Positions 3,449 through 62,623 of a stretch of DNA of 64,000 nt are shown here, one piece after another. The position numbers and the translations under genes are program-made. Source of the stretch: Elsinoe ampelina. Lineage: Eukaryota. Each line of letters opens with the position of its first letter. Position 1 is the first letter of the stretch. The stretch covers positions 725,781 to 789,780 of the forward strand of contig ML992512.1 of NCBI GenBank assembly GCA_010093995.1, given 5' to 3'. The notes under the pieces were generated by a model. The model made no database searches. It was given only the letters and a program-made list of their open reading frames with translations, and had not been told where the DNA came from.

Positions 3449-4651
3449 TCATAACCGCGACTTTTCCCGCAGCTCAAGTCCTCCATCTACTACATGATAT
3501 TGCCCGCCGTTCTTCCAACCCACCCACCGCTCCAATGTCTCCTCACCTCCTTCACCCGGACTCAGCGCCTGCCCCGTCCATCCACCTCCTTCCAGTCCCA
3601 ACCCTTGCCCCTCCGCAGCCTCCCTCTCCGGATCCCCATCCGATATCGCGTTTCCCGGACTCTCCCTCAACGTCACCAACGGCCTTTGATCATACCCCTG
3701 CTCCTCCAACTCCCCCATGCCTAGCACCGGCGTAACACACGCATCCGTCCCATCAAACACCTCCTCCCACTCCTTCCTCGTCTTACTCTTAAACCTCTCC
3801 TCAAAAACCCTCCTCATCCCCTCCCACTCCCCCCTATCCTCCCTCTTCCGCAACCACTCCCCCTTGTCCAATCCCAACCCCTCCACAAATCTCGCAAAAA
3901 ATTGCGGCTCCAATGCCCCAACCGCCACATACCCCCCGTCCCTCGTCTCATAAGTATCATACCACGGACACCCGCCATCCAGGACATTCCTCCCCCTGGG
4001 CCCACCCCACATAGCCGTCCGCCTCCCCACCCTCGGAAACGTCGCCAGATGCGCCACCCCATCCACCATATTCGCCTCCACGACCTGGCCCTTACCCGTC
4101 CTCCCCCTCTCCAACAAGGCCATCAGTATCCCAGTAAACAACACGTGCCCACCCCCCGCGAAATCCCCCAGAATATTCCCAGGCGCGTAGGGCTTCTCCC
4201 CCGCGCGACCCAGCAGCGCCAACGCCCCGGACACGGCGAGGTAATTGATGTCGTGCCCCGCCATGTCTCTGTACTTGCCCTCGCGGCGGAAGCCGGTCAT
4301 TCGCGCGACGATCAACCTCGGGTTGATCCCCAACAACCTCTCCGGCGCCAGACCTAGTTTCTCCAGCACCCCGGGCCGGAAAGGGTCGATGAGGACGTCG
4401 ACGCGCGGGACGAGCGCGAGGACGAGGGCGAGGCCGCCGGGCGTTTTCAGGGACAGGGCGATGGAGGATTTGCGGCGGGCGAGGTTGTCAGGGGTCGGTG
4501 GCGGGAGGGTCGCGGTGTGCGCTGATGGGTGCGGGCGGTCGATGCGCAGGACGCTGGCGCCGTAGTCGGAGAGGAGGAGGCCGGCGTATGGGGCCGGGGC
4601 GAGGCCGGCGAGTTCGAGGACGCGGAGGGAGGTGAGTGGGGGTGGTTGCAT
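3449..4651 (-). CDS. Alpha-methylacyl-CoA racemase-like, CoA-transferase family III (CaiB/BaiF); probably peroxisomal
   Basis: Motifs [36 protein letters not shown] and [11 protein letters not shown]-terminal SRL is a PTS1 signal. True start taken as MQPPPL at 4651. Confidence 0.9.
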
Positions 4652-9543: not shown

Positions 9544-10154
9544 CTATGCCTTCTCATAAACCCAATCAAACTCCGCCTTCTTCCACGCATTCAGCTCCTC
9601 AGGCTTGAACCACAACGCAATCTCCTTCTTAGCCGACTCGACAGCGTCAGAGCCATGGCAGACGTTGCGGCCGACATCGATGGCGAAATCACCACGGATG
9701 GTGCCCGGGGCCGAGGCGAGCGGGTTGGTGGCACCGAGGAGCTGGCGGCCGACCTTGACGACCTCCTTGCCCTCCCAGACCATGGCGCAGATGGGGCCGG
9801 AGCCCATGTAGCTCACGAGACCGGGGAAGAAGGGCTTGTCGGATAGGTCCGAGTAGTGCTTCTCCAGGTGCTCCTTGGAGGCGGTCACGAGCTTGATGGC
9901 GACGAGCTTGTAGCCGCGCTGTTCGAAGCGGGTGATGATGGGGCCGACGAGGCCGCGCTGGAGGGGGTGTTAGTCGGGGGTGGGTGGGGTTGTGGATATG
10001 GCGATTGGAAGCTGGTGGTGGGGAGATTCCGATTGATGCTGGGGACGTACCTGGACGCCATCAGGCTTGATAGCGATGAAGCTGGCAATGGTCAATTTGT
10101 GCCCCTCTTTGTCCACCATGGCGGGGTGTTTGCATACGTCTGCTCGGAAGTCAT
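9544..10154 (-). CDS. ndk1: Nucleoside diphosphate kinase; 3 exons
   Basis: [28 protein letters not shown]...[21 protein letters not shown], with the catalytic His present. Confidence 0.95.
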
Positions 10155-10334
10155 CTTGGCTGCTTCTTCTTCTTTGAGTGCTCTGTGGGCGACGGTGAGG
10201 TGTGATCGGTCTTTTGCTCCGAGATGCTTGAAGATGGGAGGATTGAATTCTTCTTGTTGGGATGAAGACATTGGAAAGAAGATCAGGGTGGCATTGAAAT
10301 GTGCTGTGTTTTTTCTGGGCAACCCCACTACTGC

Positions 10335-11958
10335 CAAGGCTTAGCGAATTTGGAGACTGCCGCCCCCCTTTCTTGGCACTTTTCAAGCCCAGATTTATAC
10401 CAATTTTTTGGTGAATATCCGGGATTTATAAGCATTTAAGTAATCTGATTAATTTAAAAAGATAAAGCTAAAAAAAGGTGTTACTAAAACTCTATAAAGG
10501 CTCTTTACTACGGAGTGTAAAGGCCTTCTTGTCTAATGCCCTTCTTAATCCTTTCTAGTATACTCCTTACAAGGTTATTAATCTCCTCCTAATCGATATA
10601 GTTCTATTTATAGAGGATAGCTGCCTTTAGCTCGTCGATAGTAGTATAGTAATAGTTCTTAATACGCTATTTAAGGATCCTCTATACATTCTTAATAATA
10701 TTAAAGTTAGGTAACTAAGGGCAATTAGTATACTAATAAAAGCCCCCCTTAGTGTTAAGATAAGCCTTATAACAAGCAACTACGTTGTTAAGGCTCCTTA
10801 TACCATAGCTGCTATTATTATTCTCTAAAAGTATAAATAGCTAGTACTTCCTTTTAGCCTCTAAGAAGGCTAGTTTAATATAGAGGTATAATATCTTAGT
10901 AAGGTACTATATCTAAGTAAGGTTACTAGCAGCCTTTAAAGGTAGTTAATCTACTTTATAATAGCGGTGTTTATAAGCCTCCTTATTATAATACTAGTAC
11001 TTATATATTAAAGGCCTTATATTACTAAGAAGTTAATACTCTTCTTTCTCTATCTCGATTACTAGCTCTAGTGATAATCCTTCCTTGTTAATGTAGTTCT
11101 ATATAAAAGTAGTACTCTCCGACTTGTCGTTAGAGTTAAAGAAGACTATCTCTAACTTATAGTTATATTTAACTATAGCCTAGTAGTGTAATTAGCTCCC
11201 CTTTAACTATATCTTAAACTAGATACAAGTCTTATACTAGCGCTCTATATTGTTCCGGATGACTCGAGTAGTTCTCTATAACTCTAATGCGAAGTGTACT
11301 TTATCTATAAAGTATACTAACTTCTACTATCTCTAGGTTTACTACCTATACTTCTTATAAAAGGCTAGTCTTACTACTACGTTCTCCGGCCTTAACTACC
11401 CCTTTTAACAAGCTAGGCACTTATAATATCCGGCTAAATTTATAGCGTTCTTTACTATATATAGATAGATATTATCTATAAAGAGTTTAGTAAGCTAGAC
11501 CTATATAGTTTAGTAGTTTTTATAGGACTTAACAACGTAGTAGATTATATAGTAGAGGATTCTTGAATTGATCTTTTTAGATGCTCCTTTACGTAATTTA
11601 CCTAGCTAATAGTCTTACTATATTTCCTATAAGTACTAAGTCTAGATAGGCACCTTTATAAGCTTCTTTATCTTTTGTTATAAGGTGCTAGTTTCGAATA
11701 AGGTCTTTATACACACGCGCGTTAGTGTCGGCTATTTATGTACTAACTCCTAGTCCTTATTATGCACCTTCTATCTCTTTTTTAATATATTTCTTTCTAG
11801 TGATATAAAGCATATAGTGTTCTAAGCATTTTAGCTTCTTACACGTCCCATTTAGTGCAGTGTTAGTGGAGTTATAAATTATTAAAGTTTTGAGGTGTGG
11901 AAATTGTATACAAAGCTAAGCAATTTACCCCGGCAACCTCCAAATTCGCTAAGCCTTG
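10335..11958 (-). mobile_element. RIP-inactivated Tc1/mariner-superfamily DNA transposon with 28-bp TIRs
   Basis: TIRs CAAGGCTTAGCGAATTTGGAGnnTGCCG at 10335-10362 and inverted at 11931-11958 (26/28 identical). The minus strand carries transition-mutated transposase motifs that de-RIP to WKLVxFxDEVHF (~11305), HxWAxVGYNYK (~11180), LLEDNDSSHG (~10820) and NCPQSPDFNIIENVWRILKQR (~10700). Confidence 0.85.
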
Positions 11959-12178
11959 TGCGTTGCACCAACCAGAAGGCCAATTGGGCCAAATGGCGGT
12001 GGGCAGAGCCAGCTCCGTTTTTCAGGGACCGGACTTTCGGGCCGACGATGCCGTCGATAGCCTCGCGGTCAGGAGTCCAAGGAGAGCTCCACCACGACTT
12101 CGTTCTCTTCAAGGGATAGGGGATTCGTGGGGGACTCATCGTGTTTCCTACAAATTGTCAAGGGCGAGCGTCTTCATC

Positions 12179-15100
12179 ATGGCTCGCCAAATCTCACATT
12201 CACGACTCTGGGTGTTCCTGGCTGCGTTCCTGTTTCTTCTTAGCTACGTTTCGCTACCAGCTTGTAAGTCGCTCCTCGAGTACATTTGCTACACTAGCAA
12301 AAGGAGTACAAGACCACCTTCTGGAATGTCTGCTAATAGTCACAGATGCCGTCAAGAAAGACAACTTTAAAACCTGCGACCAGTCAGGCTTCTGTAAACG
12401 GAATCGAGCATATGCCGACACAGCATTGGGATCCTCATCATGGTCAGCGCCTTATGCACTGGACTCTGGCTCGCTCAAGTTCAACAAGGGAAAGCTGACC
12501 GGCACCATTCTGAAGACTCTGAAGAACTCCGAAAAGGTCAAGTTGCCAATCACGATCACCTTCCTTGAATCCGGAACAGCACGAGTGACCGTGGACGAAG
12601 AGAAGAGGCAGAAGGGAGAGATCACACTACGTCATGACTCCAAGGCGAGGAAGGAAAGATACAACGAGGCTGCTTCGTGGGCGTTGATAGGAGATCCGGA
12701 AGTCAGCAAGGGCGCCGCGATCAACAAGGAGTCTCCATCTGGCGAGACACGTGTGGTTTACGGACCTGGCAGCAAATTCGAGGCAGTCATCACTCATTCT
12801 CCTTTTGCCATGGAGTTCAAGCGAGATGGCTCTACACAAATCAAATTCAACGACCGCGGTCTTCTCAACTACGAACACTGGCGGCCAAAAGTTGACAAAC
12901 CTACCGAGGAGAAGAAGGAAGGCGAGGAGACACCTGCCGCAGAAGTCAGCAAGGACGAAGAGGATGAAAGCACATGGTGGGAGGAAAGCTTTGGTGGCAA
13001 CACTGATAGCAAGCCTCGAGGACCAGAAAGTATCGGCTTGGACATCACTTTTCCTGGCTACGCTCATGTTTATGGCATCGCGGAACACACTGGACCTCTG
13101 TCGCTGAAGCAAACCCGGGGTGGTGACGGCAACTATGACGAGCCCTACCGCATGTACAACGCTGATGTATTCGAGTACGAGATGGACAGCCCCATGACAC
13201 TTTATGGATCGATCCCGTTCATGCAAGCCCAGAAGAAGGACTCGACTGTCGGAGTCTTCTGGTTGAATGCTGCTGAGACTTGGGTGGACATCACAAAGGC
13301 CACGACTGCCGCCAACCCGCTCAGTCTCGGCGTGCCGGCGCAGACCACCACTCACACTCACTGGTTCTCCGAGTCAGGACTGCTGGATGTTTTCGTCTTT
13401 CTAGGACCGAAGCCACAAGATGTCATTGGTGCATACACTGATCTCACTGGATACACTCAGCTGCCGCAATCCTTCGCCATCGCCTACCATCAATGCCGGT
13501 GGAACTACGTCACTGACACGGATGTCAAAGATGTGGATAAGAAGTTCGATCGTGCAAACATTCCATACGACATTATCTGGCTCGACATTGAGTACACTGA
13601 TGGCAAGAAATACTTCACCTGGGACCCTGATAATTTCCCTGATCCAGTCAGTATGCAGAACCAGCTTGATGAGAATGAGAGGAAGCTCGTCGTCATTATT
13701 GACCCGCACATCAAGAATACCGATAGCTACCACGTTGTCGAGGAGTTGAAGAACAAGGGGCTTGCTACCAACAACAAGGATGGCAATATCTATGAAGGAT
13801 GGTGCTGGCCAGGATCTTCGTACTGGATTGACGCCTTCAACGAAAAGGCTCGCAAATGGTGGACTGAACTCTTCCAGTATGCCAGCTTCCCTCACAGCAA
13901 GCCGAACATGTGGTTGTGGAACGATATGAATGAGCCTTCGGTGTTCAATGGACCAGAGACCACCATGCCAAAGGACAATATCCATCATGGTGGCTGGGAA
14001 CATCGTGATGTCCACAATCTCAATGGCCTTACTTTCCACAATGCGACATATCATGCTCTTCTTGCCAGGGATAAGTCTGAGGAGAAGAAGGGAGGTGTGC
14101 GTCCATTCGTTCTGACTCGCAGCTTCTTCTCTGGAAGTCAGCGCGTTGGTGCTATGTGGACCGGTGACAATCAAGCCTCGTGGCCTCACCTTGCTGCATC
14201 CTTCCCCATGGTCCTTGGCCTAGGGATTTCTGGCTTCCCTTTTGCAGGCGCAGATGTAGGCGGCTTCTTCGGCAACCCTGAGCGGGAGCTACTGGTTCGT
14301 TGGTACCAGACCGGCATCTGGAATCCTTTCTTCCGTGCTCACGCACATATCGATACTCGTCGTCGCGAGCCATACCTCCTTCCCGACACCGAACGACAGA
14401 TCGTCACTCAAGCCATTCGCCTTCGCTACTCCCTCCTCCCATCATGGTATACCGCTTTCCACCGCGCCAGCATCGATGGCACTCCGATCGTCAAGCCAAT
14501 GTACTACGTCCACCCCGACGACGAGTCCTCCTTCGCCATCGACGATCAACTCTACCTAGGTAACACTGGCCTCCTCATCAAGCCCGTCACCACCGAGGGC
14601 AGCTCCAGCGTCGACATCTACCTCCCCGACTCAACCCCTTACTTCGACTACTTCGACTACACCCGCCACTCCGGCCGGGGCACCAAAACCATCGCCGCCC
14701 CACTCGACAAAATCCCCGTCCTCATGCGCGCAGGCCACATCTTCCCCCGCCGCGACCGCCCCCGCCGCTCCTCCGGCCTCATGAAGCGCGACCCCTTCAC
14801 TCTCGTGGTCGTCCTCCCAGACGACGGCGACGCATCGGGCGACCTCTACTTCGACGACGGTGAAAGCTTCGACTACCAAGCTGGCGCATACACATGGCGC
14901 AAATTCCGCTACACGGGCGCGACGCAGACGCTCATCAGCGAAGACCAAGGCAAAGAGGGGAAGAAGACGAAGGAGTACCTCAAGAGTATAGAGGGGATAA
15001 GGGTGGAGAAGATTGTGGTGGTGAACGCGCCGAAGAGCTGGAAGGGTAAGACGGAGGTGGCGGTGAGTGAGGAGGGGCTCAAGGGGAAGAGTGGTGAGGT

Positions 15101-15212
15101 GAGGAAGGTGGGGGTTGTATTTAACGAGGGAGGGAAGGGGAGGGCGGATTGGGCGGTGGTGAGGGATCCGAAGGTTGGGGTTGGGAGGGGGTGGAGCGTG
15201 GATTTCTCGTAG
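12179..15212 (+). CDS. gls2: ER glucosidase II alpha subunit (GH31); intron 12264-12345
   Basis: Signal peptide exon MARQISHSRLWVFLAAFLFLL. Motifs FKTCDQSGFCKRNR, WNDMNEPSVF (nucleophile), WTGDN and PFFRAHAH. Confidence 0.95.
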
Positions 15213-15667
15213 AAAACGGAGAAGAGGAGGGAGTCCTGCCAGTGTGGGATGTCGGGAAGTGTAGGATATGAATATTAGGGAAAAGTAGACTGTCATCATA
15301 TTATCATGCAGCTTCATTTGCCGCGCATGTGTGATCGCACGTCCATCTGCATTCTTGCAAGAGCATACACGATATGACGTGACGTATCCTTCAAGCCTCA
15401 TGCGCAGCGACGATGGCCAGGGCTGCGCATGGAGAGAGGAAAGCGCTTTGTTGACTATGTACCCCAGTCCGACTGCCACCACCTTACTCCCTTTCTCCCT
15501 CTTCCGACAAGGTATACGAGCGAGGCAAAAAAACGAGCCTACCACTGTGTATACCAACCCATTCCTTTCTCCAGCCCAGTACAACGCAAATTCGAGTCTC
15601 TCACCCCCTTCCCAGTCCCAGTGAAAGCCCCGCCTCTCCTACAACCCACCACCCCAGCCAAAAATGC

Positions 15668-15958
15668 AAAAAATCCGCCCCCCCTCTCGGGGAGTCGGAC
15701 ACAATTCAGCGCGCCAGGGACCGCCACCCGGTGGAGCCTGCACAGTTCAAATCCCCGCCTGCAGAATCCAGTCTCCAGATCCAGTGTATCCAGTGTCCAG
15801 TCTCCAGTCTCTGCAGACGGGAATCGAACTGTGGGCTCCGAAGGTGACGGTCCGCTCAGGACTAGATGCGCATTTTGATTTTGGCGCCGTACGACTGCGC
15901 CACTCCGCCCAGAGTGCCATGCACTTTACCCGGGGTGAGGACGATCGGCAGTACTTGC
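15668..15958 (-). ncRNA. Unidentified structured RNA candidate with Pol III-like signals
   Basis: Long hairpin (arms 15718-15765 and 15810-15853) whose substitutions become G-U pairs only on the minus strand. Terminal GNRA-capped hairpin at 15674-15699 followed by T6. B-box-like AGTTCGATTCCC at 15819-15830. TATA-like TTTATAAT at 15980-15987. The 5' end is approximate. Confidence 0.55.
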
Positions 15959-16094
15959 GAGGGGGGCAGGGTGGGAAGGATTATAAAGGTTGGTGCGAGC
16001 GGCTGGAGGGTGGCATGTGATTGCCGCTGCCTTGGGAGCGCTGGGGGGGTTGGGAGGGTAAGGGGGGTTTTTGGCAGGGAAGGGGATGTGATGT

Positions 16095-16865
16095 TCATCG
16101 TCGCGCGGCTTTTCGGAGGAGCGAGGAGATGGGGGCCACGGCGATGCGCGCGAACCAGGGGGTTGCCCAGATGCTGGCGATCAGGCGCGCGGGGAGGAGG
16201 ACTTTTGTGATGGCGTAGGCGGTGGCGAGCTCGATGATGATGCGGGCGCCTGTGCCAGCTTGGGTGTCGGCTGCGATGGTCCTGGGGTTTCGAGCTTCGA
16301 GGGATGGCTCTGATGTGATTGAGTTGAGCTTCTTCTCGAGTTGTGTGACACGGCTGTCAATTGGCTGGGTGATCTTTCCATCTTCCACGTAATCCCTTCC
16401 TTGCAATTCAGAAGTTGACTTTACGCCTGCTTCTCTTTCCACTTCATCTTCCTCGTCACCGCTGATCCATCCTTTCTTCCTTGCGTATCTTCCCCATTTC
16501 TTCACTCCTTCCTGAAAGTTCTCGCTTTCTTCCACTTTCTTCCTCCATCGTTCCAACCAGACTGCATTGGAGTAGTGGAATAGCGCAAAGAAGCCCGCCA
16601 GAGGGACGAGAGCGGTCAGCTCATGTAGGATGAGGAATGAGGTGACGTGTGACACTGGAGCGGACACAAGGGGAGCCAGGTATGGTCTCAGCCGCGGTGG
16701 AAGGCGAGCCTGAAGTCGTGCTAGTGCAGACACGCGATTGGTGGTGTCTGGACCTTGAGCTGTGCTGCCGGGAGGTGGAGTGCTGAAATGGCGGTGAGGT
16801 CTACGTGCTGGAAAGACGAGCTTCCAGCGATGAAGTTGAGGTCTACATCGCTGCATGAATTGCAT
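16095..16865 (-). CDS. FLILHELTA-family (Mrx11-like) mitochondrial protein
   Basis: Literal FLILHELTA motif, C-terminal ELATAYAITKVLLPARLIASIWATPWFAR and an Arg-rich presequence-like N-terminus. Confidence 0.85.
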   Translation of the reverse strand: MQFMQRCRPQLHRWKLVFPARRPHRHFSTPPPGSTAQGPDTTNRVSALARLQARLPPRLRPYLAPLVSAPVSHVTSFLILHELTALVPLAGFFALFHYSNAVWLERWRKKVEESENFQEGVKKWGRYARKKGWISGDEEDEVEREAGVKSTSELQGRDYVEDGKITQPIDSRVTQLEKKLNSITSEPSLEARNPRTIAADTQAGTGARIIIELATAYAITKVLLPARLIASIWATPWFARIAVAPISSLLRKAARR

Positions 16866-17153
16866 CGCAGGCCGTGATTGCGATGGTCAAAGACGAGACA
16901 GTGGTGGGATGAGGTTGACGTGAATTGCTCAGCTGGGGTTCGGCCCCACAGTTCCTTGGTTGTGGCTGCACTCAATCCATCTGGCATGCTGTTCACAGAG
17001 CAGAATATCTACAACGTTTCAGTTCAAGAGTAAAGGTCCTTATCAAGTCATGATCATGTATCTTCATATCGTGACGGCTGTCAAATCGGTTTGCCAAAGA
17101 CGTCTTCCCAGAAACGAAATTCCCTCCCATGGTCACCTGACCATCCCAAACAC

Positions 17154-18386
17154 CTACAACTCAGCATACGCCGCCCCCAGCACCGGACTAATCGCCGACC
17201 CCTTGTTCAATATGCCATCACTCGTCATGAAATAACTGTACCCTCCTACTTTCCCCTGCGTATCCATCCAATCCCCAACACTAGTCACAAAATCCGCCTT
17301 CTCCTGATCGGTCCCATCATTCAACCCGAACTCGGTGACCCAAACCTCGTCAATCCCGTACTTCTCCCCCAACGCGATCGTCTTATTCACCTGCAGCTGA
17401 AAGTTATACACCGCATTCTGCTTGTTCCCGTACCAATGCATGTTCAGGAAATCAACCGTGCAGTTGCCCGCGCACGCCTTGAGGAAGTTCTCCTGGTACG
17501 CGAGCCCCATGCTGCCCCCGCCGTTGGTCACCGCGGGGGACCCGATGAGGGCTTTGCCTTTGAAGGGGTTCATGTAGGCTTGGTGACCCGTCGCGGCCGC
17601 GGTGTAGGTGATGTCGCATTGGCCTTTCTGGTCGGGCTCGTTGAAGCCGAGGAGGCGCTTGGAGCCTTGCGAGATGGCTTTGTTGGCGTCGGTTGTCCAG
17701 GCGGATACGGAGAGTTTGGTCGGGCACCACATCATGGGGAAGTATTCCATTTCCGTGGGGACGTCGCCACGGGTGGTCCACCAGTTGTAGGTCCAGCCGA
17801 CGTTTTTGCCGGTCCAGGGGGTGAGTTGGCTGGGGTTGGTGAAGGAGAGACCTTTCTTCTTGGTGGATCCGGTGGGGGCAGATGGTGCCGGGGCGCTGCT
17901 GGAGGGAGTTGGGGCATAGGTGGAGGAAGGCGGAGCTGGAGCGGCGGTGGTGGCTGGTGGAGGACGGGTGGTGGGAATGGCGCTGGTAGGAAGGGCTGTC
18001 GTCGGCTCCGGGACTGGCTCCTCTGAGGTAGGCTCGACGGTAGGCTCAGCGGTTGGGTAAGCAGTTGGGGCATCTCCAGTGACTGTGACATCGGTGGTAG
18101 CAGTCACATCAGTAGTGACCACAGTGGTGACGATGACAGTCGAACCTCCAGGCACGTCAGTGACAGGGTCGACGGGGGCAACGACTGAAGTAGGGAACAG
18201 GCCACCAGTGCCGGTTCCAGAGCCGCCGGTCGGGAAGAAACCCCCAGTAGGGCGGAGAGAGCGAGTACGGGTCCTGAACCTGCTTCGCCATCGACCACCA
18301 CGACCACGGCGAGCGGTCGTGGACTGAGCAAAAGCGGTTGCCAGCAACACGCTGATGAGAAAGAGGCGGAATGACATGATCGACAT
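17154..18386 (-). CDS. Secreted GH128 (Asl1-like) beta-1,3-glucanase with long Thr/Pro-rich N-terminal region
   Basis: Signal peptide and motifs KKGL, WTYNW, EYFPMMW, LLGFNEPD, DFLNMHWY and VWVTEFG. Both catalytic Glu residues are present. Confidence 0.9.
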   Translation of the reverse strand: MSIMSFRLFLISVLLATAFAQSTTARRGRGGRWRSRFRTRTRSLRPTGGFFPTGGSGTGTGGLFPTSVVAPVDPVTDVPGGSTVIVTTVVTTDVTATTDVTVTGDAPTAYPTAEPTVEPTSEEPVPEPTTALPTSAIPTTRPPPATTAAPAPPSSTYAPTPSSSAPAPSAPTGSTKKKGLSFTNPSQLTPWTGKNVGWTYNWWTTRGDVPTEMEYFPMMWCPTKLSVSAWTTDANKAISQGSKRLLGFNEPDQKGQCDITYTAAATGHQAYMNPFKGKALIGSPAVTNGGGSMGLAYQENFLKACAGNCTVDFLNMHWYGNKQNAVYNFQLQVNKTIALGEKYGIDEVWVTEFGLNDGTDQEKADFVTSVGDWMDTQGKVGGYSYFMTSDGILNKGSAISPVLGAAYAEL

Positions 18387-18940
18387 GTTGCCTGCTGGAA
18401 ATGAATGTAATCAAGAGAAAAAGAGTGACTCTTGGGGTGAATGACGGCTGGGGAGACAAGGTTCGGGAGAGGCGCAAGTGAAAGATGATATACTTGCCCG
18501 GCATACTTACGAAAGAGACTGTGCTTGTGGCATGGTGGAGCAAGTCGGTGGCCACGTCCGTTGTCCCCTGTACGTTGCGAGCGGACCATTGCATGATGAG
18601 AGAAGGAGTCCGCCTTCAATTTCCACAGTGTAGTACAGATGCAAACAGAGTGCATGGGCCCGCGCAGGTACAGATCCGATTGACCCGTGCCAGGGGTACG
18701 AGTCGACAAGAAGGGCGCCTGTCCCCCAGCAAATTGATTCTAGGGCGGCGGCAACGGCGTACAGAGGTCACATCGTTTGTCTGGACGTGTTTCGAAAGAT
18801 GCAGACGAAAAGACATGGTTGTTTCAAGTACAATTAGCGTGTGGAGAGGGAAGGGGAAAGATGCGACCAGAACCTGCCCCTGCGTCGGAACAGCTTAGTC
18901 ACCCGTCAAACCCGTCTGGCTGGAAGAGCCGCATGCCGTA

Positions 18941-18994
18941 GACTGCATGAGAGACTGCGTGAGAGTCTGCATGAGAGCCTGCATGAGTCTGCAT
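18941..18994. repeat. Short imperfect 12-bp tandem repeat, about 4.5 copies of GnCTGCATGAGA
   Basis: gactgcatgaga gactgcgtgaga gtctgcatgaga gcctgcatga gtctgcat. Confidence 0.7.
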
Positions 18995-19157
18995 CGGACA
19001 TGCAAAAGCATAAATTCAGCTTGCGTAACCAAAAGGGACAGGGTGGATCAAAACATGCGTCCGCGGAGATATGCGTGGGTCGTGGACACGCTTCTATTGA
19101 CGCCGTCGCTAATGCCAAAGACCAGTAACATGCACGAGATGGTGCAAATCGTAGCCG

Positions 19158-22100
19158 CTACGACTTGTTCTCGCCCTCTTCCTTCTTTCCGTCGGACACT
19201 TCCTCCTTTTTCTGTCCCGTTTCTGCCGCTGTCCCTTCCACCTTGCGGCCTTTGACCTTGTCCACCAAGGCTTTTGCAATGTCCGCAAACCCCTCGATCT
19301 TACTGAGTCTGTTGTCAAACAATTCGGCATCACGCAGCAGGCTGTGAACGAAATTAGCACACGTACAGCCCACCATACTTCATCTGTACATACCTCTCCT
19401 GTCCCTTCTCCGTCTCCACCTTGACGTCGTCAAAGGCTGGCACCCACACCTCCTTGTAGCTGCTTGCGATCTGGCTCATGATGCTTGCCACGTCAATCTC
19501 AGTAAGATGCCGATTCAGCACCCTGTATAGTGTCCCAGTCTCCTTCGTCAGCGTTTCCATGTACTTGTTAGGCTCGTCTGTGCTATCCTTGTCAAACTCG
19601 ATCTTCCTCATGGCTGCGCTATGGGATCTGGCCCGTGCTGTCATGATTTCAACAAGCTTATCGTGTATACCCATTTGATGGTCTTGGAATAGCCGCTTGA
19701 CCTTGTCGAACTCCGCGAGCGATTCCGTACGGCCCCCAACGTGTCGACGGACGGCTTCTCTTATGTACGGCGTCAATGTGACTACGAAACTGAGTGCTTG
19801 TGATGATAACGCCAGATGTTTCGTGGTAATATTTTTCAATCCAGACACACGCGTCGCGCCAGCACCCAGGATCAGCTGTGATGACCGAGAATTGAAAGTC
19901 CGCAAGACCTCGGACAAAGCAGGTACCACAGTCGACGCAATGTTAGGTATCGAAGCTATGAGAGCGAGAAAGTCGTCCAGCGTGGGAAGAAGGGCTATGG
20001 CAGATGCGACAAGTATGAAGCGAGTCTCGTCGATATACGCGGGTTTCGCAGATGATTTCTTACCTTCGGTGCTTGTATCTGCTTTCGTTCCATTGGAGAC
20101 CGGCTGTCCGTTCTGCACTGGATCTGTGAAGTCTTCCCACACTCTTGTGCCTCGTGTCCAGATCGAGGGATCGGAGTTCATGCCATCCAAGATCCTTGAC
20201 AGGATGACCTGATCTTTGTCCTGAAAGTCTTGCGCCTCCCATTGGTCAGACTCTAGCTGTGTGGCAATCCTCTGGCTTTCACTCTCCGCCATGTTGGCCA
20301 CAAAAGCTGTGAGCTGAGTATTGAGGATGTTCTTCAATGTCTGTCCAGATCTTCCAGAGATGGCCTCACATTCATCTGCGAAGAAGCGCAAGAGCGTGTA
20401 GTAGCGAACGAATCGTGCAATCGGTAGCTTGTGTGTTTGCTCAGCTCGCACTTTCAGCACGCGAGTAATTTGTGTCTGAGCAACGTCCACGGCTTGGCCA
20501 AGCAGAGACGACAGGTCCAAAGCTTGAATCAAGTTGCCAGGCAATCCTGGTGAGCTCAGGGGGGGCGTGATTCCATTGGGCGCTCTGAGATGGCCATCAA
20601 TAGATACCGTACCTGGGAGAACAGGTGAAGAAGGCATCTCCGGGGACGCAGCGCGAGACGGCCGATCTGAGCTACTCGTCACATCCAGCAACACCTTCAC
20701 TTGTGAGGACAGTCTTCTGAGGGCTTCACTGACATCAGTGCAGACACCGACAAGGAGTAGTTCGGCATCAATCTCGTCCAGAGCCCGAAGGTTGCGTGCC
20801 AGAATTGCAGACTTCTCTTGCTGGCTCGAACTGCGACCACCTCTTGTGGCTACCGAGGTGACAGATTCGGCATCTTCGTCGTTGGAGCTTGGAAGATGCT
20901 TTCTAATCAATGCTTTCATCTCTTTCATGACGGTATCCCTGAAGGCGTCGGCAGCAGGATTGATGTAATCTGCTCTTTCTAGCCCAGCCAAGTCAGCTGA
21001 TACTGCTCTCCTGAACTCTTGGCCCGTGTCGAGATACAATGGTGGCCCAACAGAAAGCTTTTGATCACCTCGATGTCTCTGCGTTGCATTTGCCCATCGT
21101 TTGATCGTATCGTTTGCCGGCACACGGTCCACATGTGCTCGGAGATCTTTCATCAAGGTCTCGAGGAAGCGAGATTCGAAGCCTCTGCCTATCCTTGATT
21201 GCAGTTCTCGGACTCCAGATGTTAAACTTTGTAACACCTGCAATTCTCGCAGATCTATGAGCTCTGGCTCTGTATTCTGTTCGGTCTTGAGCTTGGCTGG
21301 AGATGAAGGTTCCTCGGTTTGACCACAGATTAGACGATCAGTCGCATCAATTCCGTCTGCAGCAGCATCAAAGTTCCCTTCACCTACAAGCTCCTCGCAG
21401 CGAACGACCTGATCAACGACTCTCTGCACCTGTTGTGTGGCTCTGTAAAGCTTGCCAATGTTTTTCCTACGTTGCCGCATCCGAGAAATCTCCAAACCGC
21501 CGAGTGCCATACCCCGATCGAGCTCAGCAAGATCTGCGCGAAGCTGCTGAATCTGCGCTGCCGACTCCTCCGCCTCACGCTGCAGGTCTCGTAGAGATCC
21601 TAATGCAGCGAAGAATGACGAAGATGCGGTGGATATGGAATTGATCAAATGTACCTCCACAGTATCCATGTACCACGAAAGCTTCTCTTGGAGAATAGCA
21701 TTGGTCGCAAGCGATTTCCGGGGAGGGAGCGTAGTGCCATTTGCGGCCTTCTCCTCGGCTACCGTGCCCGGGGGAGGTCGCACGATCTCGGCTCGTTCGC
21801 TTACAATGTCAAAAGTCCTCGGGTTTTCAAGATGGAAGTCTTCTTCAAAGTAAACATTCGGTACTGTAGTTAGGGGAGTTGGCTCGTTGTACTTGCGCCG
21901 CGAGTACCCGCTTGATCGTCTTCTGCCGCTCGGGCTTTCCACGACGGGCGACAAAGTCGTTGTCGATCCTTGTCGAGATGTTCCTGGTCGACCTAATTTC
22001 TCTACCGCCGGGGTGCCCGGAACGCTCCCGGTATCCTCTGCTCCGTTTGGCTTGCTCGTCGCATCTTTGTCCTCCCTCCTCCTATTTATACTGTCGAAAA

Positions 22101-22576
22101 GCGGTCCAATCTTCGAGAGATAGTCCTTGAAGGCCGATGTCTCCACATGAGGAATGTTCGTAAGAGTGACTGGTGGGATATCTCTTGTGGTGGGAGCCTT
22201 GTAGCCAGGGGTGACGCTCGCATTGTGGGGCAGCAGACCTGTTCGGACGATAGGAGGTTGCAGTAGATTAGAAATGGCTATAGAAGTCAGAACTGTCCAT
22301 CCGGTACCGTGGCCTGCAGTTACCATTTTGTCCTGTCTCCCCTACCGCGAGATCTGTCCGTGAAGGTCTACTGTCCAGGGACCCCCCAATGGATGTCATA
22401 GTCGATCCGAATGACGCGACGCTAGCATTTGATCCTCTCCTGATGCTTGGATTCCTCGAGCCACTCGGGTGCCGCTGACTTGTGTCAATTCGTGGGAACG
22501 GATATGAAGCATGCGCCGACAATGGTGAGAGGGCGGAGTCGAGGCTGTCGATGGACCTCCGATTTGAGGATGACAT
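19158..22576 (-). CDS. VPS54: GARP complex subunit Vps54; introns 22278-22323 and 19342-19393
   Basis: Motifs YFEEDFHLENPRTF, LQEKLSWYMDTVEVHL, FNSRSSQLILGAGA and KNITTKHLAL. Canonical introns join the three ORF pieces. Confidence 0.92.
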
Positions 22577-57565: not shown

Positions 57566-59678
57566 AGTGCTTGTATACTCTGATGATGCTCTGGGTGGTT
57601 GGGACAACCTTTGCCACGCAGTGACAGTTAGGCTCTTTTGACTGACAGACGTCCGAGAAAGTGTGCTCGAAAGGCTCAAGATAAGTGTGATATAGTCCTT
57701 GAACGAGTGACGAGTATCAGCGATTGGTGTTTTCTTGTCCAACTGGCCAATGGACTCGGGATGTCATAGTAATACAGTGGATCCTTTGAAGTGGAGCTCG
57801 TGTTGGGAGGACCTATCCCGAATGCAAGACCCGAGGACGACTATCTATGCAGACGTTCGGTTCGATGTTGTCTCAGATAAGTCGGTGGGTACCAAGTATT
57901 TGCAGAGGTCTAGACGAACAAAGAGCAAAGAGATTCCAATATGTAGGCGTCCGAGTCGTAGCGTCAAATGATGTAGAGTCCAGCCGACAACGTACAGCGG
58001 CCAAGCATGCAAGAGGCGCCTCAAATGCGGAGTATGCGTCTGGGTGGCTTGTAGCGACGTCAGACGTACAGTGGGAGTAGTCCTGTTCCTGATGGGCGTC
58101 GAAGATGGAGTCGACCTGGCACGTCACGTCGGGTCAGAAGTCCTCCCTGGTGTGGTCTTGTGGTGATGCCCGGAGAGGAGTGAGCTGCTGCGTGGGGGTT
58201 TCGGCTCGAAGCGGTCCAATAGAGGGGTAAATTGGGTGGATGGGTGTGAGGCTCTAGCTGGGGTGAAGAGCAGCGTGGGTTTTAGCCAAGTAGGACCTGC
58301 ATATCTTGAGTCGAGCGTCAATAGGACACGGGAAGTGCGATATATGAAAGTGGTGGTGGTACAAAGGAGAAGTCAAAGATGGACACGATTGAATGTCTCA
58401 ACCTGTTACCGTATCCCTCACCAGTCAGACCTCGAGTCCGTTATCGCAGCAAATTCTCCGAGTCTGGCCGTGAATCTGGGGCTCTACCAGAGTTTGAGAG
58501 CAACAGTGGAACGAACCACAACCGTGTGGTGAGATAGTTCAAGCCATGGCATGCGGCCAGGCACAACTTCGGTCGTTGAACTCGAGACCCTCTTTGGATG
58601 ATGCCATGATCCGAGCCGTGCGCAGTGGCATCCCCCGTCTTTGCTCTACATGCAGCATCTGCACGAGCGACTGTGCTCGAGCTTGAATAGCTGCATCCTG
58701 CGAGTTTCTGTGACGTGGGAGGAGGAATTGATGCGTGATGTCTGGACGCGGGGTTGGTCGGCAGTCGGTGCGATTTGAGTGGGATGGAGGCAATATCTGA
58801 CGAATAGAATCGGCCACTGGAAATTGCTATCAGAGGCCGCGCTATGCAGGTCATCTGGCGTCGCCTCCGGAGTCTGAAGAGTGGCCCGTCTAGGGCACGA
58901 CAAAAAGGAATGGCCGGCCTGACTCCTGCTCAGCCCGCCGTCGGTCGATCGCCCCCGACCTGATGGACCGCAGACGGTGATTTTCATCAATTTTTGGCGT
59001 GGGATAGCTGCAGGAACGTGTGCCGTCGGGAATATGAGGTCTTTATACGTGTGTCGATGCGAGTGCTGGCCACGGCTACACGCGGTTGCTGCACTCGTCT
59101 TCTCCCTCTGCCGTGAACGCACCATGACGAGATATTCATCCCTGATGCAGTCCACCACGGTCCGTCACACTTCTGCGCTGTATTCACCCGACATGCATTC
59201 AACATCCTCTATCTTTATCCCGACGATCGTGATGGTCAGGCCCGTCCCGGCAATCGACCGAGAATCTTTGGTCAAGGCATACCAGGTATCGAGGACAATC
59301 ACACGACATTGAACATGCGAGTAGCAAAATACGCTGATCAATCCATAATAATCTTATACAAGAATCAGAAGATACTTCTCCGCCACCTACTCCATCGCTC
59401 CTCTATATCCCAGACCAACCGTAATCCCGCAGAAACCCTATCAAACCAGTCGTTCCAGGCCCAAAGGCCTCAGACACTACACGCACTAAATACCAAGTCA
59501 GCTCCAACCCTCACCCTTCTCGTCCCTTCCGACTCACCTGGAAATAATAAGGATTCCACTCCTTGCACTCACTCCCCTCCGCACACTGGGCCTTTCCTCC
59601 CTGAAACCCAATCCCTCCGCAACGAGCATACTACACAATCACGGTCAGCCATCTTCTTCCCCTGGGAATGGTAGTCTG

Positions 59679-62623
59679 CTACTCCCAGCTCATCCCCCCC
59701 CTCCTCTTCGGCCCATCTCTCGGGATCCACCACGGCCTTCCCTTCACCGGCCTCGGGCCTCCGGGAACGCCAGTGGGTCTCCCGGGCTGCGGGCGCGCGG
59801 AAGGAGCAGGGGGGGAAGGCTGGGGGCGACGGGTAGGGCGGGTAGGTACCTTTGGGACGGTCGCGGTAGTGGGGACGGGCGCGGGGCCAGGAGTGCCCGG
59901 GGCGCTGGGGCCGGGGACGCCGGGGCCGCTGGGGGCGCTTGGGACTGGGGCAGGAGCGCTGGGGACGGGGACGTTGCCCGTGCCCTGTGGGGGGCTGGGG
60001 ATGGTAGGGTTGGCGGTTTCGGTGGGGGTGACGACGGGGGCGATGGGGAGGGTGCCGTTGCTGCTGCCGCCGGAGATGGGGAGGGCGAGGATGCGTTCCG
60101 AGGCGCGCTCGGAGACGGCGATGATCAGGGCGGAGGGGTTGGTGGTGACCATGCCTGGGAAGACGGAGGCGTCGACGACGAAGAGCTGGGTGGGTTAGAA
60201 GGGGGTATGGTAGGAGAGGGCAGGGGGGCTCACGTTGTCGGTGCCGTAGACTTTGGTGTCGAGATCGACGACGGCGCTGCCGCCTTCGAGACCGCTGTCG
60301 GTGCCCATCTTGGAGGTACCCATCCAGTGGTTGGCGGATCGGGAGCCGACGGTGACGGGGTACTAATGCGTGTTAGCTTGTGCTTTTCGATGTGTTGATG
60401 TGTTTGACTTACAGAAGCGACAAAGGCCTCGGCGGTAATATTGGCAGCTGGGTAGATGATCTCAACACCAGAGACATTAGCAAAAGCAGCCCTCAAGTTC
60501 TTGATACCCTGGACGACAGCAGCCTTGTCCTCGTCAGTCTTGAGGAAAGGTGGGTCGGACACAGTCATGGACAAGCTGGGGGTAATAGTCAGGCGACCAC
60601 GAGAAGTAGAGCCACGACCGAGGTACTGAGAGATGGTCATGGTGCCGTTGTTGCCCATGTTGGCAGACCCCTCAACACGTGCAGTCCACTGGAGCTGACG
60701 CTTGATGCCATCAGCACCGTCGATCTCCTCCCAGAAAACCGGGCCAATGTTGGGAGCAGACTGGGTAAGGATACCTGTGCGGCCGTTGAGGTAAGCATCG
60801 CGATCGGCTTCGATAGGAGCCTTGAAGGCACCGTAGAAGTCGTAAAAGACGGACGAGGGAACACGGACGACGGTGTCAGTGTTGGTGTGGTCGTCAAGGT
60901 TCTCACCGACCGGCAGGTCAATCCACTCGGACTCGGCAATCATCTTGCCACTGTCAGAGGTGCTGGCAGCGACGGTCTGGAGCTGATCGGCGGGACCAAT
61001 ACCAGAACGCATGAGAATCTTGGTGGTACCGAAGACACCGGCGGAGAGAATGACACGTCCTCCAGGCTTGACGTTGACGTGACCGCAGTGACCACCCTGG
61101 CCGAAAGCCTCGACATCAAGACCAGTGATTGTGCTGCCAGTGCGAGTGACACGAGCGACGGTGGTATTGACCCAAAGGGCAAAATTGTCACGGGCATCAG
61201 CCTCGACGAGGTAGGTGGCCATTGGACCGTTGCGCTCACCATGAGAGTACATGTAAGGAGTGTGAGAGAAAGTCCTATGCTTCTCGCCTGGCTGCTCGTT
61301 GGCAGTGACGCTAGTCCAGCCGGCAGATGCCAAAGCAGTGCTGAGAGCGTTGTAACCCTGAGGAAGGTAAAGCTCACCATCAGCAGAAGGCCTGTCAGTC
61401 CATGGGATCTTGTTGAAGACACGCTCGATGGACTCGGTCATGTCGGCGGATCTCCAGCCCGCGGGGAAGTTGTAGTCGAAATCTTCTGGGTTGGCCTTCC
61501 ACCAGAGAGCGGCGTTGACGGCGGTTCCACCACCGAGGACGCATCCAGCCATAGCACCGGCGTCAGGGCATGCAATACCGGCAGAGTCGGCCCAGATCTC
61601 GTTGCAAAGACCTGGGACGTCGAAGCGGGTCAAGTTGGTGCCCTGGAGCCAAGCAGGACGCATGGTTCCACCCCAGCGGCCCGAGGAAGGAGGACCGCGC
61701 TCGATGAGGAGCACGCTCTTGCCAGCCTCAGCAAGCTTGGCAGCCATTGGGATACCACCAGCACCAGCACCGACGACGATGTAGTCGTAGGTGTTGTTGC
61801 CAGGGGCTGAGCCAGGAGCGCAAGAAGCTGGAGCAGATGGGAGTGGGGCAGCTGAGCTGGAAGGCGCAGCAGCGCTGGAAGTGCTAGGTGTGTCGGTGAC
61901 AGTGACTGGGAGTGAGGAGGCTCCGGAGGTCGCTGGGATCGAGGTGGGCGCAGGGGCGCTGGTTGGGGCCGGAGCACTGGTAGGAGCTGGCGCAGCAGCG
62001 GAGACCCAGTCATTGTAGGCAGCCTGGCGAGCATCGTCAACTGGCACACCAAAAAGATTGGCGTAGGTGTGCTGGGTGAAGGCCGAAGCAGGGTCGGCGA
62101 GATCTGTGGGAGGTGTGGTACCCTGAGCATATCCGACGACCTGAGCGTTGCCATCCACGGGGATACGAGAAGCACCGTCCCAGGTCCAGCAGTTTTCGCA
62201 CCTGTAGATGAGCTCGAAGGTGGTGTCGGTCACAGTCGTCTTCAACGGAGTGATGGTGGCATTGCCAGTGTAGACGTCTGGCAGGATGTATCCGCTGGCA
62301 TATCGGAAGGATGTAACCATCTTGCCCTCATTGGGCCACAGGAGGAGCAGGAGCGAGTTCGTCATGCTGCCTCCGAAGCTGAGACCAGTCCATCCTACAC
62401 CTGTGGTTGTGCCGGCGACACGGCCGATGAATTCTGTCTGCTTGTCGGCGGCATCGGCAGGGGGGAGCGCGTAGCCAATCTGGAGCGAACCGGTACCGAC
62501 CGTGTCCAGGGAAGCCTGGGAGACGATGATACCCGTGTCTGCATCAGTGTACGGGGCGACAGATGCCTGGCCCAAGACGGCCGAGGCGAAAGAAGCGGCG
62601 GAGAAAAGAGTGGTGGCCCTCAT
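59679..62623 (-). CDS. cdh: Cellobiose dehydrogenase (AA8 cytochrome + AA3_1 flavodomain) with Pro-rich C-terminal tail; introns 60363-60412 and 60186-60233
   Basis: Signal peptide, heme ligands in GGSM and FTQH, YRCENC, FAD motif YDYIVVGAGAGG, LTRFDVPGLCNEIW, and catalytic ANHW and TTNP after splicing. Confidence 0.95.

Follow-up and report, generated by a model that had tools for sequence, protein, structure and literature searches.

Between two convergent genes of a 64,000-nt stretch of Elsinoe ampelina DNA (the window), the minus strand holds a long hairpin accompanied by matches to both internal boxes of a tRNA-type RNA polymerase III (Pol III) promoter and by a downstream run of six thymines (T6). 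The minus strand of positions 15500-16200 was read for this study. The feature is real, and its set of signals is non-random. Our favoured reading, which we hold at a probability of roughly 0.45, is that of a lineage-specific module, derived from a tRNA or from a short interspersed nuclear element (SINE), that contains an inverted duplication, is transcribed within longer RNAs and possibly serves as a Dicer substrate. An original prediction, made from the letters of the same DNA, had listed most of the elements discussed here; each of those it listed was found in its place when the sequence was read and the coordinates were re-derived (Table 1).

The hairpin is formed by two arms of which one is an inverted copy of the other, with about 42 pairs aligned along them. 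When the 5′ arm is aligned with the reverse complement of the 3′ arm, 38 of 49 columns are identical, and the remainder consist of four transitions, one transversion and six gap columns in four gaps. This structure exceeds chance. A microRNA-like RNA (milRNA) or hairpin locus is expected to have a stable stem-loop on its transcribed strand, and the 171-nt core provides one on the minus strand, folding at -90.7 kcal/mol with a z-score of -6.85 and no equal among 200 shuffles. On the plus strand, the same core reaches -65.5 kcal/mol (z -3.05). The full 323 nt are likewise biased towards the minus strand (z -5.07 against -2.12), and the predicted Pol III unit has a fold z of -5.66. The A-rich stretch that separates the tRNA-like head from the hairpin is mostly unpaired in the fold, and some of its bases form a short stem around the hairpin.

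When the 64 kb were scanned in sliding windows of 150 nt, GC-adjusted energy put the core third among 5110. Two loci of similar rank have weak shuffle z-scores, -2.66 at 59660-59840 and -1.55 at 4260-4510, so the hairpin is the single stand-out structure in the 64 kb. The former stretch, considered on both strands, is 73% GC and tops the 150-nt scan in GC-adjusted energy; its z-score comes from dinucleotide shuffles, and its arms, a C run and a G run, are at 59693-59712 and 59797-59816. The latter, on the minus strand, is the second structured stretch picked out by the scan and is unremarkable.

Pol III promoters of type 2 have an A box and a B box in that order on one strand, some 30-90 nt apart, with a T run downstream of the unit and none inside it. 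The consensus of the A box is TRGCNNAGTGG. The A-box match of the present locus, TGGCGCAGTCG at 15902-15892, has one mismatch to this consensus and is located inside a stem-loop that resembles a tRNA D arm. The B-box match, AGTTCGATTCC at 15830-15820, was found in the 5′ arm as the original prediction had it; its single mismatch to GGTTCGANTCC falls on the first position, which is the least constrained, and its core positions are intact. The A box is 61 nt upstream of the B box on the same strand, and T6 follows downstream, with no T run longer than 3 in the 242 nt before it (15915-15674). With the A-box match, which had not been listed, the set of Pol III hallmarks is stronger than the original prediction knew.

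Taken singly, both motifs occur at chance level in the window, where 2 B-box matches were found against 4.67 expected and 31 A-box matches against 26.8 expected. Their combination is rarer. An A-B pair with a spacing of 30-90 nt occurs once in the window, at the hairpin locus, and has T6 within 300 nt downstream. Among 60 Markov-simulated windows, four contained an A-B pair and none contained a pair together with T6, and other fungal DNA (49 distinct loci, 309,058 bp) yielded 126 A hits, 8 B hits and no A-B pair. Given the hairpin, the B box and T6, the chance of an A box falling within the 61 allowed positions is ∼0.015, based on 31 hits in 128,000 strand positions. T runs of at least six number six on the minus strand and four on the plus strand of the 64 kb. 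The GAGA-capped stem just before T6 received two overlapping terminator-like calls, compared with 0.8 expected in shuffles.

The TATA-like box probably does not belong to this arrangement. A Pol III TATA element is expected ∼30 nt upstream of the start and is needed in some fungi. For a start 10-20 nt ahead of the A box, the TATA-like TTTATAAT is instead about 58-72 nt upstream of it. The original prediction counted this box among the Pol III elements; it is misplaced for that role and probably lies outside any Pol III unit. The small stem-loop at 15934-15908 is at or upstream of the predicted start.

Table 1. Features of the hairpin locus and its neighbouring genes (window coordinates; minus-strand features are given 5′ to 3′)
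Feature	Position	Strand	Basis or remark
TATA-like TTTATAAT	15987-15980	-	read directly
Small stem-loop AGTGC-ATG-GCACT within CCCGG/CTGGG	15934-15908	-	read directly; paired in fold of full 323 nt
D-arm-like stem-loop TGGCGC-9 nt-GCGCCA	15902-15882	-	stem formed in fold; contains A-box match
A-rich spacer from tRNA-like head to hairpin	15881-15854	-	read directly
Long hairpin, 5′ arm, containing B-box match AGTTCGATTCC	15853-15810	-	fold and arm alignment
Apical loop, 44 nt, degenerate heptamer repeat (ACTGGAG-like)	15809-15766	-	repeat detection
Long hairpin, 3′ arm, inverted copy of 5′ arm	15765-15718	-	fold and arm alignment
GAGA-capped 6-bp stem-loop, just 5′ of T run	15694-15679	-	terminator scan
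T6, possible Pol III terminator	15673-15668	-	read directly
T5, four bases past T6	15664-15660	-	read directly
FLILHELTA-family gene (PF10306)	16866-16095	-	stop codon 105 nt upstream of the element's 5′ end, same strand
gls2, glucosidase II alpha (GH31)	12180-15212	+	one intron, ∼12265-12346

The strand bias of the fold has two sources: four wobble pairs in the arms and the repeat in the loop, whose CUGG-type units pair with one another via G-U on the minus strand only. On the minus strand, each of the four transitions between the arms makes a G-U pair; on the plus strand, each makes an A-C mismatch. The original prediction took this pattern as the signature of selection on RNA structure. The pattern itself holds for four of four transitions, but a one-sided test gives p 0.0625 and the asymmetry stems partly from the loop repeat, so the wobble-type transitions are suggestive at most as a sign of selection on RNA. 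That the element is under selection at all seems to us doubtful. Repeat-induced point mutation (RIP), which prefers CpA, was considered as a source of the arm differences. Three sites have T in the 5′ arm and C in the inverted 3′-arm copy; these precede C, not A, and RIP is unsupported.

The promoter-like boxes are not part of a recognizable tRNA. ARAGORN found no tRNA gene in the window and none in 15500-16200, at either the default or the 90% threshold; lowering the threshold to 80% or 70% gave 122 or 182 calls in the window, which is noise and uninformative. The tRNA covariance model (RF00005) returned no row at the gathering score, nor at E-values up to 10 on 1001 nt or on 131 nt around the locus. 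A tRNA gene would show a cloverleaf to a finder and a match to this model, and neither was seen. What the locus shares with a tRNA gene are the A- and B-box matches at a workable spacing and the D-arm-like stem; it differs in having no cloverleaf, anticodon arm or T-stem pairing. No anticodon-arm-like pairing occurs within the A-rich spacer (15881-15854), and the bases that flank the B box, where a T stem would be, are unpaired. The same defect is present in both arms, which suggests that the source had lost its tRNA structure before it was duplicated. The head may resemble the 5′ part of tRNA-Ala.

Other structured RNAs were sought with equally little return. No Rfam family matched at its gathering score anywhere in the 64 kb, a search that includes the covariance models of RNase P/MRP (mitochondrial RNA processing), signal recognition particle RNA, U small nuclear RNAs, small nucleolar RNAs and telomerase RNA. 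The original prediction, which had found no hallmark motif of tRNA, 5S, U1-U6, U3, SRP, RNase P/MRP or a telomerase template, is supported on this point. In E-value mode (E up to 10, 1001 nt), three chance-level rows were returned with E-values of 0.22-3.6, all on the hairpin: mir-8927 (20.3 bits, gathering score 160), mir-345 (15.5 bits, gathering score 65) and SNORD17 (13.2 bits, gathering score 45). The 131 nt of 15800-15930 gave no rows at E up to 10. The lack of both a tRNA match and an Rfam match fits decay of a tRNA-type source. Two further ideas were tried and dropped. A resemblance, by eye, of GGGUAAAGUGC to the conserved region I (CR-I) motif of RNase P was set aside as it had no Rfam row. 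The whole unit was also considered as an inverted duplication of the tRNA-like head. The outer flanks align with a score of 19 against a shuffle mean of 15.3 (standard deviation 3.2), a score reached by 280 of 2000 shuffles, and only the central arms are repeated.

These negatives give some room to a plainer explanation, that of a palindrome in 3′ untranslated region (UTR) or intergenic DNA, made by local inverted duplication and drifting neutrally, without tRNA ancestry and with motif matches that are coincidental. Template switching is a known source of new hairpins, as the parts of 10.1101/2023.04.19.537475 that treat them describe. Such a palindrome would account for box frequencies no higher than expected, for the silence of the tRNA model, for a microsatellite loop that carries an indel between sequencing runs and for a lineage-specific site (the last two are taken up below), and some coincidences are to be expected where very many windows are scanned. 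It leaves the ordered signals to chance, and chance produced the pair with T6 in none of the simulations and no pair in the 309 kb of fungal DNA. It would also have to accommodate an A box that sits within a stem-loop of D-arm form and a B box that has kept all of its core positions. We regard a plain palindrome as quite unlikely.

The element lies between gls2 on the plus strand and the FLILHELTA gene on the minus strand, and contigs from four coded sequencing runs (X3, X4, X6 and X10) were aligned to 14900-17300 at a likeness of at least 85%. In all four runs, one contig bridges the hairpin and T6: 14900-16872 in X3, 15275-16882 in X4, 15301-16476 in X6 and 15454-15872 in X10. The first three are continuous with the FLILHELTA coding region, and the contigs extend 200-390 nt beyond T6. 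They are unstranded, and their run type is a guess for X3 and X4 ('RNA?') with no guess for X6 and X10, none being recorded as RNA. Stretches without contig cover (15143-15223 in X4, X6 and X10, and 16925-17005 in all four) were not used as evidence. By its own numbering, an X3 contig starts at ∼12349, beside the exon-2 start at 12347; contig ends across three studies fall at 16846-16882, beside the ATG at 16866; and adjacent contigs differ in depth (249.6 versus 45.1). The coincidence of contig ends with the exon-2 start and the ATG, together with the unequal depth, hints weakly that the contigs derive from transcripts.

If the contigs are RNA, the region is transcribed within longer RNAs, most simply as a FLILHELTA 3′ UTR of roughly 800 nt. 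An AT-rich patch at ∼15275-15300 is near the proposed end of this UTR. The original prediction had named a 3′-UTR element as an alternative; the continuity of the contigs with the FLILHELTA coding region would fit it, and as their cover is unstranded, gls2 read-through on the plus strand may be the source instead. Just downstream of the FLILHELTA stop codon, at 16032-16069, there is also a degenerate G-rich tandem repeat with units of 9 and 18 nt, which is C-rich on the minus strand.

Differences among the runs are few. X3 contigs are identical to the window. X4, X6 and X10 have in common a G>C change (15632) and, within the loop repeat, the loss of 7 nt at 15796, and an A>G change at 15944 is present in X4 and X6 only. 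With a further difference at 16614, the single-base changes total three (15632, 15944 and 16614). No change was seen in the arms, and none would be expected at such low divergence. The loop is a microsatellite that varies by a 7-nt indel in three of four runs, which implies that the apex of the hairpin is unconstrained.

Some of these observations count against an autonomous Pol III gene, the view taken by the original prediction. Under that view, TFIIIC would bind the A and B boxes, transcription would start near 15915 and stop at T6, and the resulting ∼245-nt RNA would be a selected non-coding RNA or a milRNA precursor processed by Dicer. The boxes and T6 are in the right order and spacing, which is rare by chance; internal T runs do not exceed 3; the fold of the unit is strong; and all four arm transitions preserve pairing on the minus strand as G-U. 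The precedent of Neurospora crassa is also favourable, as its abundant milRNAs are described in the relevant passages of PMC3547838 as all ending in a T cluster and as depending on Pol III. The contigs, however, run past the proposed terminator, the TATA-like box is misplaced, the locus offers no tRNA moiety for RNase Z, the apical loop varies between runs and the wobble count falls short at p 0.0625. The element is absent, moreover, from the FLILHELTA 3′ flanks of 46 relatives by fold and from 50 loci by blastn. An undescribed Pol III transcript or milRNA precursor accordingly keeps its boxes, its T6, its hairpin and its lack of an Rfam family, and loses ground on the bridged terminator, the TATA-like box and the absence in distant relatives. 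We give it a minor, though appreciable, chance.

The relatives in question are 50 metagenome loci found with the FLILHELTA protein, whose 30-58% identity makes them distant relatives only. A blastn search of these loci with the 495 nt 3′ of the FLILHELTA stop (16094-15600, minus strand) found nothing on the head or the hairpin. Its eight weak rows (E 0.008-0.44) were all in opposite orientation; seven fell on the first 62 nt past the stop codon and one on query positions 411-477, downstream of T6. ARAGORN found no tRNAs in the 50 loci. A search by structure only, covering the 500 nt downstream of FLILHELTA in the 46 loci with enough flank, gave a best 150-nt fold of z -2.08, compared with -3.57 for the window when scored in the same way.

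Gene order points the same way. gls2 neighbours FLILHELTA in 13 of the 50 loci and is convergent with it in none of the 13. In 11 loci the two are on the same strand with FLILHELTA upstream of gls2; in L039, the closest locus (gls2 71% identical), they are on the same strand with gls2 upstream; and in L030 they are divergent. As the arrangement is never convergent in the relatives, the intergenic DNA that holds the element would be specific to the lineage of the window, which rules out an RNA conserved here since ancient times. By these sequence comparisons, the site is lineage-specific. The loci in which gls2 and FLILHELTA are neighbours, in three relative orientations, include L004, L007, L008, L017, L019, L030, L032-L034, L037 and L039; the part of the window concerned is 9550-22341. 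A small conserved gene, at about 9550-9963 on the minus strand of the window, accompanies gls2 and FLILHELTA in relatives. Compared with L039, the window differs in the inverted orientation of FLILHELTA and in an additional Glyco_hydro_cc gene (17154-18410).

Ancestry from a tRNA or SINE overlaps, as to origin, with the possibility that the element is one copy of a dispersed family, either a tRNA-derived SINE or a miniature inverted-repeat transposable element (MITE) or other foldback element. An A/B-box head without a cloverleaf is found in tRNA-related SINEs, a fungal case being AfuSINE2 as portrayed in sections of PMC5063351. The arm-loop-arm unit, at roughly 140 nt, is of MITE-like size, and a 7-nt direct repeat brackets the unit. 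This repeat, GGGCGGA on the minus strand, occurs at 15910-15904, where the tRNA-like head starts, and at 15680-15674, immediately ahead of T6. As a candidate target-site duplication it is not significant, since a 7-mer was shared in 346 of 5000 shuffles. The window also contains what appear to be RIP-like repeat relics, which would mean that mobile elements were once present: the stretches 262-1081 and 10882-11497 are AT-rich, are dense in short AT-rich inverted repeats and look like RIP-degraded repeats. One of them lies just upstream of gls2.

Copy number weighs against a dispersed family. No second copy of the element exists in the 64-kb window, and none was found among the contigs of the four sequencing runs. 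Between two and four contigs per run fit the locus; all are collinear, and none is partial or continues into unlike sequence. With the window and these contigs as the DNA searched, we judge a copy of a SINE or MITE family very unlikely.

A TFIIIC-binding boundary may also be considered. Sites of the extra TFIIIC (ETC) or chromosome-organizing clamp (COC) type exist in yeasts, and here a pair of inverted B-box-like sites, one on each strand, would bind TFIIIC in the absence of Pol III and keep the two convergent units apart. The minus-strand B-box match has an inverted copy on the plus strand with two mismatches, and the position between convergent genes is suitable. The plus-strand copy has, however, lost the G of TTCGA, and contigs bridge the site. 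A boundary of this kind is highly improbable.

We return to the tRNA- or SINE-derived module as our preferred reading. From the features above we infer its tRNA or SINE ancestry, an origin of the hairpin by template switching, read-through by RNA polymerase II, Dicer processing and any function, and the course of events could be as follows. A degenerate internal promoter of the tRNA-gene type, with its A box in the D-arm-like stem and its B box 61 nt further on, would be what remains of a tRNA- or SINE-type insert that has lost both the fold and the score of a tRNA. A template-switch-like event would then have duplicated the B-box-bearing segment in inverted orientation around the heptamer microsatellite, giving rise to the hairpin, which is followed by the GAGA stem and T6. 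The hairpin RNA would be made at least within longer transcripts, most simply the FLILHELTA 3′ UTR of roughly 800 nt; a Pol III transcript of its own, ∼245 nt long, with a start near 15915 and an end at 15673-15668, is possible and unproven. Its likeliest action, if it has any, would be as a Dicer substrate that yields milRNA-like small RNAs. Cutting of the hairpin inside the mRNA could then lower FLILHELTA expression in cis.

Several points weigh against this history. Each box, taken singly, occurs at the frequency of chance, and a scan of some 250,000 windows should yield a few coincidences of this kind by chance. The tRNA ancestry rests on two 11-nt motif matches and one stem, and the tRNA covariance model stays silent on the 131 nt even at E up to 10. 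The contigs behind the long transcript are unstranded, their RNA type is a guess at best, and their cover could stem from a gls2 3′ UTR on the plus strand. The relatives examined are all distant, at 30-58% FLILHELTA identity. Finally, the intact B-box core, the internal T runs of at most 3, the rare T6 and the four of four wobbles would suit a Pol III unit that is still in use. In a bolder version of events, we would be seeing a small-RNA gene of the Pol III type as it arises. The decayed promoter would still recruit TFIIIC and Pol III, and a template switch that duplicated its B-box segment in inverted order would have made its transcript a hairpin of ∼245 nt. This RNA, with the B box inside its stem, would be diced like that of a milRNA gene, from a unit contained in the 3′ UTR of two convergent genes. 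Such a birth is unlikely.

Known systems place the locus in context. The closest is milR-4 of N. crassa, in which, according to the passages of PMC3547838 devoted to it, the mature milRNA lies between two tRNA-Ala genes, is made from a co-transcribed precursor and requires RNase Z. Both loci join a hairpin, as an actual or candidate small-RNA precursor, physically to tRNA-type Pol III elements with a T cluster downstream. In milR-4 the two flanking genes encode predicted, genuine tRNA-Ala and the tRNA is the site of RNase Z cleavage, whereas here a real tRNA, the feature that matters for membership, is not detectable and the B box is inside a hairpin arm; any resemblance in how the two work is one that we infer. 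N. crassa loci of the milR-1 type share with the present one an intergenic hairpin followed by a T run with a TATA-like element nearby. The same passages describe milR-1 as being without an A or B box and as using TATA-like elements, whereas here the A and B boxes are the better placed and the TATA-like box is misplaced; the milR-1-type loci have no sequence similarity to the present element.

The likeness to fungal tRNA-related SINEs such as AfuSINE2 of Aspergillus fumigatus, as far as sections of PMC5063351 depict them, lies in a tRNA-related head with A and B boxes and in a candidate short flanking direct repeat. SINEs, in contrast, are multi-copy with clear target-site duplications, and an internal hairpin of 45 bp is not a SINE feature. 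The hairpins attributed to template switching (10.1101/2023.04.19.537475, in part) offer a parallel in that a local inverted duplication provides a ready-made stem-loop in transcribed DNA. They concern animal miRNAs, whereas the event proposed here would be read from the similarity of the arms alone. A re-analysis of fungal hairpin loci, in the portion of PMC9757828 that sets out its standards, makes acceptance depend on small-RNA sequencing support, genomic context and conservation. Six strings of 18-19 nt from the arms and the tRNA-like head had no match in the full-text literature, which does not extend to the supplementary tables of fungal milRNA papers.

The element would belong to known kinds, namely tRNA-derived relics and hairpin loci, and is a candidate gene at most, not conserved at the distances reached. 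As no more than a decayed 3′-UTR insert it would be ordinary, and it would illustrate that local duplication can, as a side effect, yield a striking hairpin with hallmarks of Pol III. Transcription by Pol III and dicing, if they occur, would make it the second independent example, after milR-4 of N. crassa, of a fungal hairpin small RNA driven by tRNA-type promoter elements. In place of a working tRNA, the driver would then be the relic of a promoter, and the locus would bear on how milRNA genes originate.

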